From: an uncultured Rickettsiales bacterium
GTDB lineage: Bacteria > Pseudomonadota > Alphaproteobacteria > Rickettsiales > SXRF01
Length of the DNA stretch: 64,000 nt
Direction of reading: 5' to 3'
NCBI GenBank assembly: GCA_964518725.1
Contig: CAZFKP010000015.1
Location: 1,450-65,449, forward strand
In this document: one piece after another, positions 8,292-55,630 of the stretch
Layout: every line of letters begins with the position of its first letter
How positions within the stretch are numbered: position 1 is the stretch's first letter
Program-made: the position numbers and the translations under genes
The notes under the pieces: generated by a model
Seen by the model: the letters and a program-made list of their open reading frames with translations, nothing else
What the model was told of the DNA's origin: nothing
The model's database searches: none

Positions 8292-8561
8292 TTACTCGCC
8301 GTGCGCGCCAAGCTCCATGGCCGCATCAACGCCCTCTTCATCCTGAAGCGTGATCGGCGTGCTCGGCACCACGGTGGCAATGGTGTGTTTGTAGACAAGC
8401 TGCACCTGCGAGCCGCGGCGGAGCAGCACCGAGAAATTATCGAAACTGGTGATGTTGCCTTGCAGCTTGACACCGTTGGACAGGAAAATAGTCACCGGAA
8501 TGCGCTTCTTGCGGCAGGTGTTCAGGAACACGTCCTGCACGTTTTGCGGTTTCTCGGCCAT
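8292..8561 (-). CDS. hfq: RNA chaperone Hfq
   Basis: [47 protein letters not shown]...[13 protein letters not shown] is a canonical Sm1/Sm2 Hfq sequence. Confidence 0.96.
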
Positions 8562-8583
8562 GGCTTATCCCCCCGTTTTTCTT

Positions 8584-9951
8584 TTAGAGATACCCCTTCA
8601 CCGCCCGGCTTGCAACTATTTTCCCGTTTTCGGCGAAGGCCTCGTGGTTTTCATCAATCTCATCGAGCTTGTAATAATAGTTGGCCATCATGCCTGCCGA
8701 CTGTTTCAACCCCTTGGCGGAGGTGTCACCCAGCCAGTTGAGCCGCTCCAGCCGCGCCCCGTTGAACAGGTGGAAATTGGCGACCGGGTCGAGCGGGCGG
8801 CTGTGCTTCTTTTCTTTGAGCAGGTAATGGGCGCAGAGCTTGATCAACAGAGGCTTTAGCTTCTCAGCCTGTTTTGCATCCTTGTGCCAGTCCCCATCCA
8901 GCTGTTTGAGCTTCGCCACATCTTCTTTGCCCAGAAGGTCGGAGGCGCCTTTTTCGATCAGCGGGTCGAGCCATGCGCGGAACCCCGGCACCGGCGAGAG
9001 GGTGGCGTAGGTTTTGATATTTTTCATTTCACTTGAGAGTTTTTCCACCACCCGCTTAATCAGGAAGTTGCCGAAGCTGATGCCGGAGAGCCCCTTTTGC
9101 GCGTTGGAAATGGAATAGAAAATGGCCGTATCGGCTTCGCTGATATCGCCGGTGGCGGCTTTCTCGTCGAGCAGTTTCTGCACATTGTCGCTCATGCCGG
9201 AGACGAGTGCGACGTGCACAAAAATTAGCGGCTCGGCAGGCATTTTGTGATGGAAGAAAGCGAACACGCGGCGATCGGCATCGAGGCGATTTTTCAAATC
9301 CTCCCACGACGATACGCGGTGCACCGCCTCATACTCGATCAGTTTTTCCAGAATCGCCGCAGGTGAATCCCATGAAATTTCCACCAGGTCGAGCAGCGCC
9401 ACATCGAACCAGCTTGAAAGTATTTGTTTCAGGTCGAATTCCAGCGCTTTGAGCTTCGCATCATTGCCGATGATCGGCAGTAAATCGGCACGCATATTGA
9501 CGAGGAATTTAAACCCATCCGGCAGCGCGGTGAACTGGCGGAGAATGGTACTGCGCGGTGTAGCCAGTGCTTCGCGCATTCCGATTTCCAGCGCCAGCTT
9601 CTCATCGGGCTTGGCGTTGGCGTAGTCCTGCGTGAGTTTGGTGAGTTTTTCGTGGTTCACATCAAAATCACCTGCCAGCATGGCCAGGAATTTCTTTCGC
9701 CCGGCCTCGTTCAATCCCAGGTAAATGCGGCCAAGCTCGGCGGTGTTGGCGCGTGCCGTCACCTCGCCGCCCGGCGAATCAAGGCAGAGCATCATCCGCT
9801 TGCGAAGCTCATCCTCATCTTCTTTCGGCAGGTTCGGGCGAATCTCGCTGGAAAAGACGTGAAACGCTGTGCCTTTCACCTCTTGCCAGGTGCGAAGCAG
9901 GCTCGCAACGGTTTTGCGGCGGAGATGGGTGATGCTGGATGATTCACTCAT
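8584..9951 (-). CDS. Malonyl-CoA decarboxylase family protein
   Basis: 455 aa. Strings ...ISWDSPAAILEKLIEYEAVHRVSSWEDLKNRLDADRRVFAFFHHKMPAEPLIFVHVAL... and ...FYSISNAQKGLSGISFGNFLIKRVV... are typical of the MCD/MatA family. Confidence 0.82.
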   Translation of the reverse strand: MSESSSITHLRRKTVASLLRTWQEVKGTAFHVFSSEIRPNLPKEDEDELRKRMMLCLDSPGGEVTARANTAELGRIYLGLNEAGRKKFLAMLAGDFDVNHEKLTKLTQDYANAKPDEKLALEIGMREALATPRSTILRQFTALPDGFKFLVNMRADLLPIIGNDAKLKALEFDLKQILSSWFDVALLDLVEISWDSPAAILEKLIEYEAVHRVSSWEDLKNRLDADRRVFAFFHHKMPAEPLIFVHVALVSGMSDNVQKLLDEKAATGDISEADTAIFYSISNAQKGLSGISFGNFLIKRVVEKLSSEMKNIKTYATLSPVPGFRAWLDPLIEKGASDLLGKEDVAKLKQLDGDWHKDAKQAEKLKPLLIKLCAHYLLKEKKHSRPLDPVANFHLFNGARLERLNWLGDTSAKGLKQSAGMMANYYYKLDEIDENHEAFAENGKIVASRAVKGYL

Positions 9952-10074: not shown

Positions 10075-10620
10075 TCATAGGCCGCAAGCCCGGTTTCCCG
10101 GAAAGTGAGTCGGATGGCGCTCAGCGCCTCGTTGATGTCCACCGACGCTCCGGTCTGGATGGAAATGCAGATATGGCGATTTTTTTTTGGGATCGTTATC
10201 TACCATGCCAAGCTCATTGACATTGACTGCTTCGATACGCGAAATCCCGGCGCGCTCCAGCGTCTCCATTTCATGTGGGTAAGGGCCTTCACCCCCGGCC
10301 TTCATGGCATTGAATTGTTTGGCAATCAGCAGGTTTTCTTCGTCGCAATCGAGCACATATTCCAGTTTGCCAGAATGATAGGCCGGATCGTCCTGTAGCA
10401 GGTTAAGGACGGAGACAATCCCGCAATTAATAATATTTTTTCCATGTTGTTTCCCAGGGGCATTGTGGCGGACGGAATGTACAAACGGCGTTGAGCAGGC
10501 GCGGATGCTGCATCCCATCATGTCGTGATCCAATGGCGTAATATTGTTGTCCACCCGCTTATCACCCCCCTGAAATTGCTTGTTGCAACAGGCTACAAGC
10601 CATAATAAAGATACACCCAT
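10075..10620 (-). CDS. Hypothetical lipoprotein
   Basis: 181-aa ORF with the lipobox-like N-terminus MGVSLLWLVACCN. GC is lower (about 47%) and I recognise no family. The last 30 or so codons lie in GC-rich sequence and may be read-through. Confidence 0.45.
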   Translation of the reverse strand: MGVSLLWLVACCNKQFQGGDKRVDNNITPLDHDMMGCSIRACSTPFVHSVRHNAPGKQHGKNIINCGIVSVLNLLQDDPAYHSGKLEYVLDCDEENLLIAKQFNAMKAGGEGPYPHEMETLERAGISRIEAVNVNELGMVDNDPKKKSPYLHFHPDRSVGGHQRGAERHPTHFPGNRACGL

Positions 10621-28394: not shown

Positions 28395-28913
28395 ATGGCC
28401 GAAGATGCAGACAAACCAACCGACGAGAAGCCCGAAGTCGCTGAAGGCGAAGGCTCCCCCGAGGGTGGGAAGAAGAAGTCCAAGAAAAAGCTAATTATCA
28501 TCGGCGGATTGGCTGTGGTGTTGCTTGCCGGTGGTGGAGCGGCGGCGTATTTCATGGGAATGTTCGGCGGTGGTGATGGGCACGCAGAAGAAAAGACGGT
28601 GCAGGAACAGGTGGTCTATTATTCCATGCCGGAAATGATCATCAACCTCGCCGCTCCCGGCAAGCAGGCAAGCTTCCTCAAGGCCACGGTGATCCTTGAA
28701 TTGCAGCATAAGCTTGATGCCGTTACGGTGGAGGCCAACCTGCCCCGCCTGATGGATGCGTTCAACACCTATGTGCGCGAACTTCGCCCGAGCGATCTCT
28801 CCGGCTCGGCAGGCATCACCCGGCTGCGCGAGGAGTTGTTACTGCGCGCCAACAAAGCCCTCGAACCCACCAAAATCAATGATGTGTTGTTCAAGGAAAT
28901 TGTTGTCCAGTAA
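28395..28913 (+). CDS. fliL: Flagellar basal body-associated protein FliL
   Basis: 172 aa with a K-rich N-terminus, one TM helix (LIIIGGLAVVLLAGGGAAAYF) and the FliL body ...YYSMPEMIINLAAPGKQASFLKATVILEL.... Confidence 0.85.
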   Translation: MAEDADKPTDEKPEVAEGEGSPEGGKKKSKKKLIIIGGLAVVLLAGGGAAAYFMGMFGGGDGHAEEKTVQEQVVYYSMPEMIINLAAPGKQASFLKATVILELQHKLDAVTVEANLPRLMDAFNTYVRELRPSDLSGSAGITRLREELLLRANKALEPTKINDVLFKEIVVQ

Positions 28914-29754
28914 CCCTAGAGATTCTGGATTCACGCTCATTGAGCTGTCGATAGTCCTTATGATTATTGGCTTGCTGGTTGGTAGTATTGCGGGTGCACG
29001 CATCATGATCGCCAATGCTGATCTGCGCTCCGGCGTTGCCCAACTGGAATCATACAATCAGGCCGTTTATGCCTTCAAAAATAAATTTAACTGCCTGCCG
29101 GGAGATTGCATCAATAATAGGGCTATTGGCGGGCTAAATACCGGATATCATTGCGATAACGGCAATGGGGACGGACAGATCAATGACAGTTGTGGTGGCG
29201 GCTCTCTCTTGCCAGTCAGCGATGTGGAAGCATCGGCTTCGGCAGAGGCATGGCATTTCTGGTATATGCTATCGAGCATGCGCTACATTCCCGGCAGTTA
29301 TAATCCCGGCCAGGCTTACTCCATGGGGATTAACGCCGCCGCCTGGCCCATTTCATCGCCACTTACTAAATTCCCCTCGCAGCGGAATGCTGCCGCTTAT
29401 GATACGGTGCGTGTGTGGGCGTGGTTTTATGCCGGTTCTCATTACTGGGCATTTACCGGAGGAAATGTTGATGGAGCGTGCAACGGTTATGCTTTTTGCA
29501 TGCCCTTTACTCCTCTCACCGTATCGCTTGTCGATGTCAAAATGGATGATGGCATACCCGGCAGCGGCATTGTGGTAGCCACACGGCAAGGAACGGGATA
29601 CGGCGCCGATGGCAGCCCGCAATTCAACAACCCTTATACCACAGGAACTCCCGGCAATGCCGGATGCACGCTTACCACCGCCACACCGAACAGCTACAAC
29701 ATTACCTACACTGCCCAACCTTATTGCAACATGACGATCAAAACCAATTTTTAA
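28879..29754 (+). CDS. Prepilin-type N-terminal cleavage/methylation domain protein (type IV pilin or pseudopilin-like)
   Basis: The leader MMCCSRKLLSSNPRDSG is followed by FTLIELSIVLMIIGLLVG (Gly-1, Phe+1, Glu+5). A Cys-rich globular domain of about 270 aa follows. The ATG at 28879 overlaps the fliL 3' end, and an in-frame TTG at about 28897 is possible. The ORF-track start at 28756 is a 5' extension inside fliL. Confidence 0.72.
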   Translation: MMCCSRKLLSSNPRDSGFTLIELSIVLMIIGLLVGSIAGARIMIANADLRSGVAQLESYNQAVYAFKNKFNCLPGDCINNRAIGGLNTGYHCDNGNGDGQINDSCGGGSLLPVSDVEASASAEAWHFWYMLSSMRYIPGSYNPGQAYSMGINAAAWPISSPLTKFPSQRNAAAYDTVRVWAWFYAGSHYWAFTGGNVDGACNGYAFCMPFTPLTVSLVDVKMDDGIPGSGIVVATRQGTGYGADGSPQFNNPYTTGTPGNAGCTLTTATPNSYNITYTAQPYCNMTIKTNF

Positions 29755-29807
29755 GAATGGCATAACTCTTGCGAGTGGTATGCCTATAGTATAGCTATAG
29801 GTGCATT

Positions 29808-30896
29808 ATGGCCGACGAAAACCAACCCGAAATGACCGACGATGAAAAGGCCGCCGCCGAGTGGGAGGCCTCGCTTGCCAATGAAGGTGGTGATGGCGCC
29901 GCCGCTGCGGGAGGGGATGCGGAAGAACAAGCGCGCATTCTCAACCAGGACGAGATAGACTCGCTGCTGGGGTTTGATACCGTTTCTGGTGGTGGCCAAG
30001 CGAAAGATGGCATTTTTGCCATCCTCGACAAATCGATGACGGCGTATGAAAAACTGCCGATGATCGAGGTGGTGTTCGACCGCCTCGTGCGCCAGCTTTC
30101 CACCAGCTTCCGCAATTTCACTTCGGAAAACGTTGAGGTCAGCCTCGATTCCATGACCAGTGTACGTTTCGAGGATTACCTGAATTCGATCCCCCTCCCC
30201 GCGTTGCTGGTTATTTTCCGTGCCGTCGAGTGGGAGAATTACGGCATGGTGATGGTCGATTCCGCACAAATCTACACTATCGTCGATATTCTTCTCGGTG
30301 GCCGTAAATCGAGCAAGAAAAATGTCCGCGTCGAAGGTCGCCCCTACACGATTATCGAACAGGATTTGGTGAAGCGCATGGTGGATATTCTGCTCGCCGA
30401 CCTTGGCGCGGCATTCGAGCCGATCTCTCCGGCTACCTTCACCTTCGACCGGCTGGAAACCAACCCGCGATTCGCCACTATCAGCCGTCCGGCAAACCCG
30501 GCGCTTCTGGTCAAGTTCCGCGTTGATATGCTGGAAGATCGTGGTGGGTTTATCGAGCTGCTCTTGCCGCACGCCACACTCGAACCCATCCGCGACCTCC
30601 TGCTGCAAATGTTCATGGGCGAGAATTTCGGCCAGGATACGGTATGGGAAAAACATCTCGGCAAGGAGCTCCGCAATGCTGCGGTTACTGTCGAGACGGT
30701 GTTGCCGGAAAAAACCATTACCCTGAAAGATGTGATGAGCTTTAAAGTGGGGAGCACACTGCTGCTCGACTGCAACCCGGAGGATGAGGTGATGCTGCGT
30801 TGCGGCGGAGTGCCAATTACTACTGGCGTATTAGGGAAAGTTGGTGATAATATCGCCGTATCGCTTACGGAAGATATTAAACGCAAACCAAAATAA
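29808..30896 (+). CDS. fliM: Flagellar motor switch protein FliM
   Basis: 362 aa with the N-terminal ILNQDEIDSLLG (CheY-P binding LSQxEIDxLL motif) and middle and C-terminal SpoA-like regions. Confidence 0.93.
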   Translation: MADENQPEMTDDEKAAAEWEASLANEGGDGAAAAGGDAEEQARILNQDEIDSLLGFDTVSGGGQAKDGIFAILDKSMTAYEKLPMIEVVFDRLVRQLSTSFRNFTSENVEVSLDSMTSVRFEDYLNSIPLPALLVIFRAVEWENYGMVMVDSAQIYTIVDILLGGRKSSKKNVRVEGRPYTIIEQDLVKRMVDILLADLGAAFEPISPATFTFDRLETNPRFATISRPANPALLVKFRVDMLEDRGGFIELLLPHATLEPIRDLLLQMFMGENFGQDTVWEKHLGKELRNAAVTVETVLPEKTITLKDVMSFKVGSTLLLDCNPEDEVMLRCGGVPITTGVLGKVGDNIAVSLTEDIKRKPK

Positions 30897-33851: not shown

Positions 33852-33928
33852 CGGAGTGTGGCGCAGCCCGGTAGCGCACTTGCATGGGGTGCAAGGGGTC
33901 GAAGGTTCGAATCCTTTCACTCCGACCA
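33852..33928 (+). tRNA. tRNA-Pro (anticodon GGG)
   Basis: 77-nt cloverleaf folded by hand. Acceptor CGGAGTG/CACTCCG, D arm GCGC-AGCCCGGTA-GCGC, anticodon arm CTTGC-ATGGGGT-GCAAG, T arm GAAGG-TTCGAAT-CCTTT, and an encoded CCA. Confidence 0.9.
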
Positions 33929-33945
33929 TTTTAATCTGAACCGCC

Positions 33946-33959
33946 GCAGGTTCTGAACC
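33946..33959. repeat. Left copy of a 14-bp direct repeat gcaggttctgaacc (T-arm-like hairpin GCAGG-TTCTGAA-CCTGC)
   Basis: It is identical to 35112-35125. Related ggttctgaaatcc occurs at 33975-33987. An exact 13-nt copy of the tRNA-Pro T arm (aggttcgaatcct) lies at 34038-34050. Confidence 0.65.
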
Positions 33960-34068
33960 TGCCTCAAAACGTGCGGTTCTGAAATCCCAATGTTTGACCT
34001 CCCCCAAATTAAGAGTATTGTTTCACCTAGTGTTTTTAGGTTCGAATCCTGTGAGGAGGGGTTGTTAT

Positions 34069-34974
34069 ATGTCTGTAAATACTTACGCATTCGAATGTAA
34101 AATCAATACACTTGCTTCATGCGTCGGAAAAATGCCTCTGAATTCTAATTCTTTTGAATTTGAGGGGATAAAATTTGCTCACTGGGAATTTAACTTTGCC
34201 GAAGGATGGAAACCAGGGGGGTGGCTTGTTACAGGCAAGACTCAAGCAGGCACATTTCATGAAGCACGCATAGCGTTGTGGCATAAATTAAATGATTTGA
34301 TTCCGAAAATTGCCATGATTTCGCAGTGCTACACTGAGTATTTGCAGGAACCATTTATTATCCATCGATTAGACACCGATGTTGCTTTGTTTTACTACTC
34401 GAAAGCAACAAGTGGTGTCCCATTACATTTTGATGAAGAATCACAAGAAGCACTTGCTCTTTTGGCAAATAAAGAACTTTCCAATGAGTTTTATTATTAC
34501 TGGAACGATATGCTCAATAACACGGGTTATCCTGCAAAGATTTTGCTAATTTGCTCAGCTTTAGAAGCATTAGGAAAAGCATTGGGAAAAGACAAGGGCG
34601 CATTTAGAAAAGAAGTTCTTGGTGATGTTCTGAGTAAAAAAGTCTTTGAAAAGGACAACCAAGGCATCAGACACAGACTGACTCATGGAGAGTATTTTTC
34701 GCCAAAAGATGCGGGAGAAGATTACCTTACTCAAATCTACGAAAAGATAATTCAATATTTTAATGATGTGATATTAAAGAAGCACCTCATCAGAAACGTG
34801 GTCAATCCGCAGCGACATCCATGGGGAAATAAAAAAGCAGGCTATTACTATTTAAAAAAGAAACCTGAGGATTTGTTCTCTCTTAAAGAGATGCTTGATG
34901 CTTTTGATAAAGATTTTGATGGATCTATTGCGAAGTTTGAGATGCTCACCCGCGATGAAGCAGAAAACTCATAA
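34069..34974 (+). CDS. Hypothetical protein with HEPN-like Rx4H motif (islet cargo)
   Basis: 301 aa from the ATG at 34069, preceded by a gaggagg RBS. GC is about 40% against about 57% in neighbouring genes. The C-terminal helical region contains GIRHRLTHGEY (R-x4-H, nt 34669-34686). Confidence 0.55.
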   Translation: MSVNTYAFECKINTLASCVGKMPLNSNSFEFEGIKFAHWEFNFAEGWKPGGWLVTGKTQAGTFHEARIALWHKLNDLIPKIAMISQCYTEYLQEPFIIHRLDTDVALFYYSKATSGVPLHFDEESQEALALLANKELSNEFYYYWNDMLNNTGYPAKILLICSALEALGKALGKDKGAFRKEVLGDVLSKKVFEKDNQGIRHRLTHGEYFSPKDAGEDYLTQIYEKIIQYFNDVILKKHLIRNVVNPQRHPWGNKKAGYYYLKKKPEDLFSLKEMLDAFDKDFDGSIAKFEMLTRDEAENS

Positions 34975-49768: not shown

Positions 49769-49934
49769 TCCTGCGGATCCTCTTGATGCGCTACGCGTCG
49801 TTCACTTTGGCACAGTATTTGAATACATGGTTTATTGGCAAATGCAAATTTTGTCTGGTGCATGTTTTATAATTATGATAATATAGGAAAAATATACCTA
49901 CTATCTATATATAATAAAAACAGGGATTTAATCA

Positions 49935-53273: not shown

Positions 53274-53431
53274 CACACTGTCACACAAAATTTAACATTA
53301 TGAAATATAATGATATTTATTTGAGCCATTCTGTGAAGCAGGTGATGTTGCTGTCATAGAATCTTCATACTTCCCAAGTAATAAGCATGCTATATTAGTG
53401 ACATGGTAATGATGGCTTGGAAAGGCTTGTT

Positions 53432-55630
53432 ATGGTAAGAGAGACAGCGGATTGGCACAAGAACAAAGGCTTGGGCGGCGAAAATTTTGGCACACAGGCT
53501 CGCGAACAAGCCGATAGGCTGATGGGCAAAGCCGACCCGCGCCGCGACCCGCAACAGGCTCAAGCAAGCCTGCCTGCTGAATCGCTTGGCAATCTTGGGT
53601 TCCTATCGCCATCCGCCCCCGCTTCCGCACCAACACGGCTTCCGGAAACAATTATCGATAAAAGTAATCTCGCCCTGTTGAGTGCGGTAGAGCACCAACG
53701 TCAGCAGGCAAAAATATTTTCCCAAGGCAAATATGCCTGGGCATCGGAATTCTTTGGGGAAGGTGAAAGCCTGCCCAGAAGCAATGATTTAAAATCAATT
53801 GACCTTGCCGGTGCAGAAGAGCTGAGAATTTTTTCCGGATTACCAATTCAAAGCGAGAACGATGGTGACGTCAAGCAGTGGATGGCCTATGGAACGGATA
53901 AGCTCCTCACTAGCACAAACGATCTCGTTAGGAATATTGAGGACAAACAAAAACGCGAAGGCGGCGCGCAATATGACGCCATTCTTGGAGAAGCAAGAAA
54001 AGCTGCTGAGGCCGCAAGCAAACTTGAGCGTGAAAGGCTTAGAATCGAAACAGAATACCAAAGAAGTTTAGACGGTCTTGCCACGCGGTCAGAAGAGGCA
54101 GAATGGAACACCCTAGAGCTATCGCTAGATGAACAGGAAAAGGCTAGAGAAAGGCTCAATCAAGAAAGACGTGAATTAAACGAACGCTACCGCGCTGATA
54201 TGTATGCGCTGCTCGACCAGGCGCGCGATGCTACGCAAAATTATAAGGTTGCCGAAGCAAAAAGAAACCTGGCGGATGCAGAATTGACCGGTGATGTCGA
54301 TAAAATTGCGGATGCCCAGTATGCGCTGCGCCAACAGGTCGAGATGCGTAACTTGACTAAGGATGCAGGAACGAGTGCCGCAGCTGACTCCAAGAACGCG
54401 GCTCAGTATCAGGCCGATATCAAAGCTGGCGAGGCAGCACGTCAGGCGCTTCGTGCACAAAAAATAGACGAGTTTGTTGCCGGTGTCACACCACAAATCC
54501 AAGAAGAATATAAACAAAAAATCTCGGCGGCCAGATTAAAATTCAGTACCAGCCCCGATCAGGCGGATGAAGCAGTCAAAGACCTTGAACAACAACGCAA
54601 CGCGCTTTTAAAGCGCTTGGCAGACAAGGGAAAAGATGAACAGCTTGCCAGCCAGATGGAATTCATCACCGAACGGCTCAATAATAACGAACCTCCCCTG
54701 TCTGAGGCCGGCATTAAAGACGCCCGCAGCCGCATGATTGTCGCTGCCGCAGAATACAAAGGCGATTCACGCGATTTTGCGAGCCACTTCTTTTCCAATG
54801 ATCTGGATCTCGCTGCCACCATGGCGCCGGTAAAAATCGGTGGGTTGCAGGGCACCCTTATCACTAGGGATAAAAATGGCGATAAAAATGCCGGGATGGT
54901 TAGCATCAATCCGAAGGATGTTGCTGAAATTAAAATTGTTGGCCAGGGTGAGAATGCTTACGTGGAAGTTATGACCAGAGGAGGTCGAGGCAACTTCATC
55001 CGCGTCACGGGTAGCGCGGCGGAGAAAATGATTAAAAATGGCCTTGATCTTTCCGATACGACCGGTGCGGTACTGGTCACCGTCGATATGAGCACAGGCA
55101 TAGGCTATGAAGGGCGCAAACTTGTACTGCTCGGAACGAATGGGCACGACATTCGCCTGAATTCAAGCGGTGGAATACAATTAGGTACACTTGATGTCAA
55201 TCCCGAAGGCAGGGCGAATATGTTTGCCGCTGTCCAGTCGGTAGGAGACAGCGACCCGAGCATTGCCGAACGTGCCGGCAGGAGCATGCTTAATGCCCGT
55301 ATCGCCGCTGCCAAAAAACAACACAGCTCCGGAAAGTACATGATGGCGCGGCTGGACGTTGATAATGACGGCCGCCTATCTGGCGATGAGCTGGCGCTGC
55401 TAGATGCGAACGGCGACAACCAACTTGATAAGCGCGAGCTTGCCGCAATCTCAGGAGCACTCTCTGGGATACAGGGGGCGGGATTAAAACAGCTTCAGGA
55501 TCTCAACAAGGGAACCCTGACGGCAATTGATATTGCTACGCTTGGCGATGTCATGTTGCCAAGTGCACGCGGCAAGCCAGACCAGCAGCTTGCCCAGAAC
55601 AACGTGTCACCAGTCAGACCCCGCAGATAG
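53432..55630 (+). CDS. Large coiled-coil protein with a C-terminal EF-hand pair (uncharacterised)
   Basis: About 732 aa; the ATG is at 53432 and the ORF opens at 53417. It has long E/K/R/A/Q-rich helical stretches. Two canonical 12-residue Ca-binding loops, DVDNDGRLSGDE and DANGDNQLDKRE, lie at nt 55355-55438. Confidence 0.6.
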   Translation: MVRETADWHKNKGLGGENFGTQAREQADRLMGKADPRRDPQQAQASLPAESLGNLGFLSPSAPASAPTRLPETIIDKSNLALLSAVEHQRQQAKIFSQGKYAWASEFFGEGESLPRSNDLKSIDLAGAEELRIFSGLPIQSENDGDVKQWMAYGTDKLLTSTNDLVRNIEDKQKREGGAQYDAILGEARKAAEAASKLERERLRIETEYQRSLDGLATRSEEAEWNTLELSLDEQEKARERLNQERRELNERYRADMYALLDQARDATQNYKVAEAKRNLADAELTGDVDKIADAQYALRQQVEMRNLTKDAGTSAAADSKNAAQYQADIKAGEAARQALRAQKIDEFVAGVTPQIQEEYKQKISAARLKFSTSPDQADEAVKDLEQQRNALLKRLADKGKDEQLASQMEFITERLNNNEPPLSEAGIKDARSRMIVAAAEYKGDSRDFASHFFSNDLDLAATMAPVKIGGLQGTLITRDKNGDKNAGMVSINPKDVAEIKIVGQGENAYVEVMTRGGRGNFIRVTGSAAEKMIKNGLDLSDTTGAVLVTVDMSTGIGYEGRKLVLLGTNGHDIRLNSSGGIQLGTLDVNPEGRANMFAAVQSVGDSDPSIAERAGRSMLNARIAAAKKQHSSGKYMMARLDVDNDGRLSGDELALLDANGDNQLDKRELAAISGALSGIQGAGLKQLQDLNKGTLTAIDIATLGDVMLPSARGKPDQQLAQNNVSPVRPRR

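Follow-up and report, generated by a model that had tools for sequence, protein, structure and literature searches.

The stretch of DNA analysed here, 64,000 nucleotides of a contig (CAZFKP010000015.1) from an uncultured Rickettsiales bacterium and referred to throughout as the window, carries between the flagellar genes fliL and fliM a gene for a protein with a type IV prepilin signal and a large C-terminal head. We consider it probable that this gene encodes an accessory type IV pilin-like subunit or adhesin that evolves fast, gained its expression by lodging behind fliL and is not a component of the flagellum. Prepilin-type proteins are a known kind; the family to which this one belongs and its head domain are unnamed, and its place behind fliL, restricted to a narrow clade and unstable there, is unusual.

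The prepilin signal clears the thresholds of two family models. The N-terminus scores 26.8 bits against PF07963 (N_methyl; curated cutoff 21.2) and 26.6 bits against TIGR02532 (curated cutoff 16.3), and its cleavage/methylation motif has the hydrophobic stretch as well as Gly-1, Phe+1 and Glu+5, the three residues that an initial annotation made from the letters of the window had read when it proposed a class III signal. No second prepilin motif occurs across the 64 kb window. The parts of this N-terminal half are as follows.

28903–28929 (+): leader peptide MSSNPRDSG, with a predicted prepilin-peptidase cut after Gly, between 28929 and 28930
28930–29088 (+): mature N-terminus FTLIELSIVLMIIGLLVG and long helix alpha-1 (model residues 12–62; AlphaFold2 predicted local distance difference test, pLDDT, 94–98)

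In an alignment of 117 family members, Gly9, Phe10, Thr11, Leu12 and Glu14, as well as the P-G-D that follows helix alpha-1, are at least 90% conserved, and a family profile searched against PDB sequences aligns with residues 1–109 of Neisseria meningitidis PilE over 107 positions (E = 1.2e-6). Confident AlphaFold2 models of the protein (pLDDT 81.7 and 80.3; predicted template modelling scores 0.82 and 0.84) consist of a 50-residue alpha-1 helix (residues 12–62), several short helices and four strands (residues 169–176, 179–186, 224–227 and 275–280). The N-terminal half is clearly pilin-like, and the head is new.

The gene is fitted tightly into the space behind fliL, where the reading frame is open from 28756, with in-frame ATG codons at 28879 and 28882, a TTG at 28903 and a stop at 29752–29754.

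28395–28913 (+): fliL (PF03748, 71.3 bits; NF009420, 154 bits)
28893–28898 (+): Shine–Dalgarno-like AAGGAA, read from the sequence, within the fliL coding sequence and 4 nt before the TTG at 28903
28903–29754 (+): prepilin-type gene, 283 aa from the TTG or 291 aa from the alternative ATG at 28879
29808–30896 (+): fliM (PF02154, 178 bits; PF01052; TIGR01397, 263 bits)

Its placement had been described correctly, with a start inside the 3′-end of fliL, here overlapping the fliL stop, and 53 nt between the end of the frame (29754) and fliM (29808). The frame had been given as 291 aa; it is intact, but the TTG at 28903 is the likelier start, yielding the 283-aa protein with its nine-residue leader and an 11-nt overlap with fliL. 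We prefer this start because the homologous TTG is the deposited start in a close relative (locus L004), because an independent 283-aa gene call (P0373) begins there, because a relic of the gene in a second relative (L087) shows ATG-TCC-CGT-AAC at the homologous place, and because AAGGAA sits 4 nt upstream, although its counterpart in L004 is the weaker AAAGAA. Conservation of the upstream ATG is uninformative, since the Asn-Asp codons of FliL create it, and the mature protein is identical with either start. A public gene call of exactly this sequence (P0001, 264 aa; window 28960–29754) begins at the internal Met28, so that the prepilin signal is lost and the protein stands without domain annotation.

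The protein carries an unusually large head, rich in Cys, Gly and Asn, and is indeed unlike the small major pilins, as had been supposed. Its cysteines had been counted as nine; there are eight in the mature protein and ten in the 291-aa version.

29035–29751 (+): head domain of 239 aa, belonging to no named family, its eight Cys forming four sequence-local pairs (64/69, 84/97, 193/199 and 255/275)
29158–29187 (+): loop NGNGDGQIND, bracketed by Cys84 and Cys97, a candidate calcium-binding (DxDxDG-like) loop
29533–29568 (+): D-x-K-M-D-D-G-x-P-x-x-G, the best-conserved motif of the head

Three elements of the head are at least 90% conserved among the 117 aligned members, namely the G-x-G of the NGNGDG loop, the D-x-K-x-D-D-G motif and the two C-terminal Cys. 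Within the loop, whose consensus across the family is NGNGDGxI, Gly87 and Gly89 are nearly invariant, and the motif makes calcium a candidate ligand. The 90% level is likewise reached by Asp211, Lys213, Asp215, Asp216, Gly217 and Gly222 of the second motif, which is still discernible in the L087 relic and in the gene that occupies the same slot in a third relative, L090. Cys255 and Cys275, nearly invariant in the same alignment, form a C-terminal pair that resembles the D-region of pilins and would presumably be joined by a disulfide bond.

Searches with the C-terminal domain, proposed in the initial annotation, retrieved a large sequence family, but neither a Pfam model nor a solved fold. A search with the head only, stripped of the signal and hydrophobic helix, returned 1022 cluster representatives among 1.84 billion at E ≤ 1e-3, all of about 240–310 aa; because the head alone retrieves these and the domain begins at residue 40–55 in every one, we regard them as a discrete family of a single architecture. 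Across the 117 members N_methyl was the sole Pfam family at E ≤ 0.01 and the head was unmatched; NCBIfam models searched over 24 members gave N-terminal matches only, well under the cutoffs for GspG, GspH and PilA, and PHROGs gave merely weak N-terminal pilin matches. Foldseek searches against the PDB found no significant relative for the whole model (best, Clostridioides difficile PilA1, E = 0.94) and no usable match for the head alone (best E = 2.6).

The family is widespread. A search of 5.8 billion proteins gave 564 homologs, mostly of 250–320 aa and with the N_methyl motif, and the family hidden Markov model (HMM) recovers the gene of the window at E = 4e-74. In a set holding one genome per GTDB species, relatives are encoded in 353 stretches, most of them from uncultured metagenome-assembled genomes (MAGs) labelled Alphaproteobacteria or Rickettsiales and often several per genome. 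Full-length members also occur in Planctomycetes (Rhodopirellula, Planctomycetaceae and Gemmataceae), Verrucomicrobia, a Bdellovibrio-like MAG and the isolate Thermogemmatispora carboxidivorans. The family HMM further reveals tandem arrays, with seven head-to-tail genes in L074 (3207–8692) and five in each of L027, L029 and L075. Within 10 kb of their family genes, L050 and L058 encode true prepilin peptidases (A24_N_bact plus Peptidase_A24), and L054 and L058 likewise have PilT-like ATPases close to members; none of the 78 other family loci adjoins fliL or fliM. Two members (L005, L008) sit on island-like stretches with a helicase/methylase of about 1570–1590 aa (WH_1, DUF8437, SNF2, ResIII), accompanied in L008 by TrwC relaxase and integrase genes and in L005 by PIN and TfoX_N genes, settings which suggest horizontal movement of the family.

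We compared the fliL–fliM slot across relatives by looking up those of FliM and reading their contigs; FliM identities below are relative to the window.

L004 (FliM 91%): gene at the same place with the same 11-nt fliL overlap, its protein 54–56% identical; frame broken at a G8 run
L090 (FliM 91%): a family member (HMM E = 4e-16) whose end is 54 nt from fliM; the contig breaks off before reaching fliL
L087 (FliM 88%): 332-nt gap holding a relic, with the leader and GFTLIE intact but the frame shifted after them and about 190 codons deleted internally
L088, L089, L093 and L094 (FliM 89–90%): fliL–fliM spacing of 121–143 nt, with no trace of the pilin gene
L091 (FliM 88%): fliM detached from fliL
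L092 (outgroup; FliM 77%): fliL and fliM adjacent, 114 nt apart

Thus the arrangement of a gene between fliL and fliM, whose conservation had been proposed as a check, is absent, decayed or swapped among the relatives. The L087 relic retains LDDGKPWAGKVVAT and the C-terminal Cys. The L090 gene is no nearer to that of the window than to distant paralogs and is non-orthologous. In the L004 ortholog one extra G breaks the frame, the remainder of which is conserved to the end; the run comprises eight G at 10550–10557 of that locus, seven would restore the frame, and the eighth reflects an assembly error or else phase switching by slipped-strand mispairing. In L091, a prepilin-type gene called as 594 aa (8372–8881), of which only the N-terminus is on the contig, lies a few kilobases downstream of the detached fliM, beside a ShlB/POTRA transporter gene.

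Wherever the slot is occupied or holds a relic (four cases), the stop codon is 2–5 nt from the same promoter element (described below). This argues for a single ancestral insertion, after which the gene diverged, was replaced, decayed or was lost; a phylogeny built from four neighbouring proteins to date the insertion was too poorly resolved (supports of 39–58%) to prove such a history. Between the window and L004, nonsynonymous divergence (dN) is 0.36 for the pilin gene and 0.05 for fliM. The ratio of nonsynonymous to synonymous divergence (dN/dS) between the two pilin copies is 0.18, and the protein is therefore still constrained. GC content at third codon positions (GC3) is 0.54 in the pilin gene versus 0.63–0.68 in most of its flagellar neighbours.

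A 469-aa open reading frame (ORF) between flgF and fliL (26913–28322, –) has a GC3 of 0.54, like that of the pilin gene and lower than in most flagellar neighbours. It was unmatched in Pfam, NCBIfam, PHROGs and PDB sequences, the corresponding spacer lacks it in L004, L087, L088, L089 and L092, and it looks like a second lineage-specific insertion in the flagellar cluster.

Several sequence elements bear on expression, and these lie upstream of fliL and between the pilin stop codon and fliM.

28329–28361 (+): conserved 33-nt block TTAACACAATATTTAGGAAACATACGCTAAATA upstream of fliL, present in the window, L004, L087, L088, L089 and L093
29758–29772 (+): sigma-54-type –24/–12 element TGGCAT-N5-TTGC (TGGCATAACTCTTGC) for fliM, beginning 3 nt after the pilin stop codon
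29783–29801 (+): AT-rich inverted repeat with 7-bp arms and a 5-nt loop, likely in the 5′ leader of fliM and overlapping the ribosome-binding region

Within the window, TGGCATAACTCTTGC alone matches the sigma-54 consensus TGGCAY-N5-TTGC exactly, and the element occurs in every relative examined. Both of its halves, TGGCAT and TTGC, stay unchanged across the window, L004, L087, L088 and L089 amid variable flanks and are also present in L090, L091 and L093, and L092 has TGGCAC-N5-TTGC. A similar conserved element stands upstream of flgF (26891–26905, –) in all relatives examined, and in L093 the sigma-54 gene itself, rpoN (989–2413), lies directly upstream of fliL. Upstream of flgB there is only a one-mismatch site without the –12 GC (49808–49822), on which we do not rely. 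As a conserved sigma-54-type element stands between the pilin stop and fliM, fliM appears to have its own promoter; fliL and fliM thus look like separate units, with the pilin gene exactly at their junction.

Because the pilin gene begins before fliL has ended, with no terminator-like site between the two, co-expression with fliL is very likely, from a promoter for which the TTAACACAATATTTAGGAAACATACGCTAAATA block is the likely candidate; this block presumably recalls the class II promoter of Caulobacter, with its CtrA box (TTAA-N7-TTAA) and –10 element GCTANAWC. Co-transcription with the motor and switch genes had been expected. The fliL part of that expectation stands, while the separate promoter of fliM qualifies the rest, and the pilin gene probably shares its expression with fliL alone. 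Where relatives lack the pilin gene, inverted repeats judged by eye to be hairpins stand between fliL and the sigma-54 element. The weak AT-rich hairpin noted at 29783–29801 exists as a repeat, downstream of the sigma-54 element, but it folds no better than shuffled sequences (z = –0.83) and only its 3′ half is conserved; with arms that are not conserved as a pair, we rejected it as a terminator or regulator.

The signal, read with what is known of prepilins in general, predicts the following path. The protein would be made with a short leader, and helix alpha-1 would insert it into the inner membrane through its hydrophobic start, whereupon a prepilin peptidase would cut after Gly-1 and Phe+1 would be N-methylated. 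The mature protein, with its Glu+5, would then be incorporated as a subunit, or as a tip or minor subunit, into a type IV pilus fibre, using assembly machinery that would be encoded elsewhere in the genome. Four local disulfides would hold the 239-residue head, in which two Asp/Asn/Gly loops may bind calcium and which is probably an exposed, fast-changing adhesive surface. Its position behind fliL would be an evolutionary accident supplying expression: as the gene occupies the gap that separates the fliL unit from the sigma-54 promoter of fliM, with its start codon overlapping the fliL stop, we propose that the fliL promoter drives its transcription and that its translation is coupled to that of fliL, while fliM is left undisturbed. 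Deep-branching free-living Rickettsiales relatives have both flagella and type IV pili (PMC9352585), although the present organism could not be assigned to that group. Full-text searches of the literature turned up nothing relevant on a prepilin gene in a fliL–fliM context or on tandem prepilin paralogs.

Several points weigh against a pilin-like fibre subunit. Foldseek finds no significant pilin match for the head, which leaves the N-terminal half and the succession of secondary-structure elements as the grounds for assigning a pilin fold. At 274 aa and with Gly at position 22, the mature protein departs from a type IVa major pilin (about 140–170 aa, with Pro22), being nearly twice the usual size. 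Pfam scans of the 44 larger ORFs of the window found neither a prepilin peptidase nor pilus or type II secretion system (T2SS) assembly genes, and the repeated decay in relatives leaves room for a near-neutral copy here. A real if unlikely alternative is a prepilin peptidase substrate which is no fibre subunit, either a membrane-anchored or released binding protein of the periplasm or surface, or a T2SS-like pseudopilin. The large, helix-rich head, unlike any solved pilin head, would suit such a protein, as would the weak N-terminal GspG and GspH matches of 22 of the 24 members searched with NCBIfam; the family is also multi-copy, with full-length members in Planctomycetes, whose non-pilus prepilin-like families are multi-copy likewise. 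However, the GspG match reaches 24 bits against a cutoff of 88.85 and covers the N-terminal 60 residues only, T2SS genes were not seen near any member checked, retraction ATPases of the PilT type, typical of type IV pili, adjoin members in L054 and L058, and the protein keeps Glu+5, which is typical of assembling subunits.

That the gene is a near-neutral passenger headed for loss, an intact frame left by a past insertion and without a present role, seems to us distinctly unlikely. The state of the slot in relatives (decayed to a relic in L087, frameshifted in L004 and empty in five others) and a GC3 below that of most neighbours are what such a passenger would leave, but the 283-codon frame is intact and keeps all family-invariant residues, dN/dS against the L004 copy is low (0.18), and the L004 frameshift is a single extra G with the downstream frame conserved, which may be an assembly error or a phase switch. 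We give even less credence to a co-opted, motor-associated periplasmic component of the flagellum working with FliL and FliM, a role that had been suggested together with a link to flagellar assembly. Although the gene appears translationally coupled to fliL and the arrangement recurs in L004 and probably in L090, a core flagellar gene would be expected in the flagellar clusters of relatives; otherwise identical clusters lack it in L088, L089, L093, L094 and L092, five empty slots to which the L087 relic is added, and the occupant in L090 is swapped for a non-orthologous one. Moreover, the family is flagellar at none of its 78 other loci, and the protein evolves about seven times faster than FliM; the L004 ortholog is only 54% identical, compared with 91% for FliM. 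These comparative data largely refute a flagellar role, and neither suggestion finds support. There is, lastly, a slim chance that the spacer between fliL and the sigma-54 element is a dedicated expression slot for exchangeable pilin or adhesin cassettes, into which members are recombined and where they are perhaps switched through a G-tract as in L004; if so, each swimming cell would show a variable adhesive fibre timed with the early flagellar genes, for instance in attachment to host or prey.

Reading the gene as an accessory pilin-like subunit or adhesin removes the tempting idea that a pilin gene in this position is a hidden flagellar part. It also exposes a large, widespread pilin-like family, which spans several phyla, forms tandem arrays and comprises at least 1000 clusters at 50% identity; its head lacks a family model or structural relative and its members are easily mis-annotated, as the public call that drops the signal illustrates. 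The locus would be a natural example of an accessory surface gene gaining expression through a start fused to the end of a housekeeping operon gene, just before the next promoter, and it suggests that fliL and fliM form separate units in this clade, with a sigma-54-type promoter before fliM.

Two further regions of the window lie apart from this locus. A tRNA gene (33852–33925) is followed by a 326-aa ORF (the region spanning 33852–34974) of 38% GC versus a window average of about 53%; the ORF was unmatched in Pfam and PHROG, and this is probably a small foreign island beside the tRNA gene. At 53417–55630 (+), after flhB and before genes for a PAS protein and a hybrid histidine kinase, a 737-aa protein is encoded which has weak EF-hand matches only.

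Among known systems, the type IVa major pilins (Neisseria PilE, Pseudomonas PilA) share with this protein the short Gly-ended leader, Phe+1, Glu+5, the long N-terminal helix and a C-terminal Cys pair, and the alignment with PilE over residues 1–109 takes in the P-G-D turn after alpha-1. Unlike them, the mature protein has 274 rather than about 150 aa, Gly instead of Pro at position 22 and four Cys pairs instead of one, its head has no Pfam model or Foldseek match, and its gene lies outside a pil operon. The T2SS pseudopilins GspG (TIGR01710) and GspH (TIGR01708) have a similar N-terminal segment, and GspG also has a calcium-binding loop; the scores against their models, however, are 24 and 20.6 bits versus cutoffs of 88.85 and 80, cover the first 60 or so residues only and come without any T2SS gene context. 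The DUF1559/H-X9-DG families of Planctomycetes likewise combine a prepilin N-terminus with a domain of about 250 aa and many paralogs per genome, but none of the 117 members matches DUF1559 (Pfam, E ≤ 0.01), so by sequence this is a separate family. By analogy only, the slot also resembles the pilE/pilS cassette exchange of Neisseria, in that one slot holds very different family members (window versus L090) with fixed promoter-side junctions; silent cassettes, recombination signals and within-genome donors were not seen here, and the genomes compared derive from different metagenomes.

In Caulobacter, CtrA-dependent pilA and the class II flagellar genes provide a polar co-regulation of pili and flagellum. 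The coupling in the window differs from it in being brought about by physical insertion into the fliL unit and not by a shared regulator, in involving a pilin of the GFxxxE type and not an Flp pilin, and in not being conserved even among close relatives. What the two have in common is the outcome, a pilin that would be expressed with early flagellar genes, and the apparent resemblance of the sequence upstream of fliL to a CtrA-box promoter.

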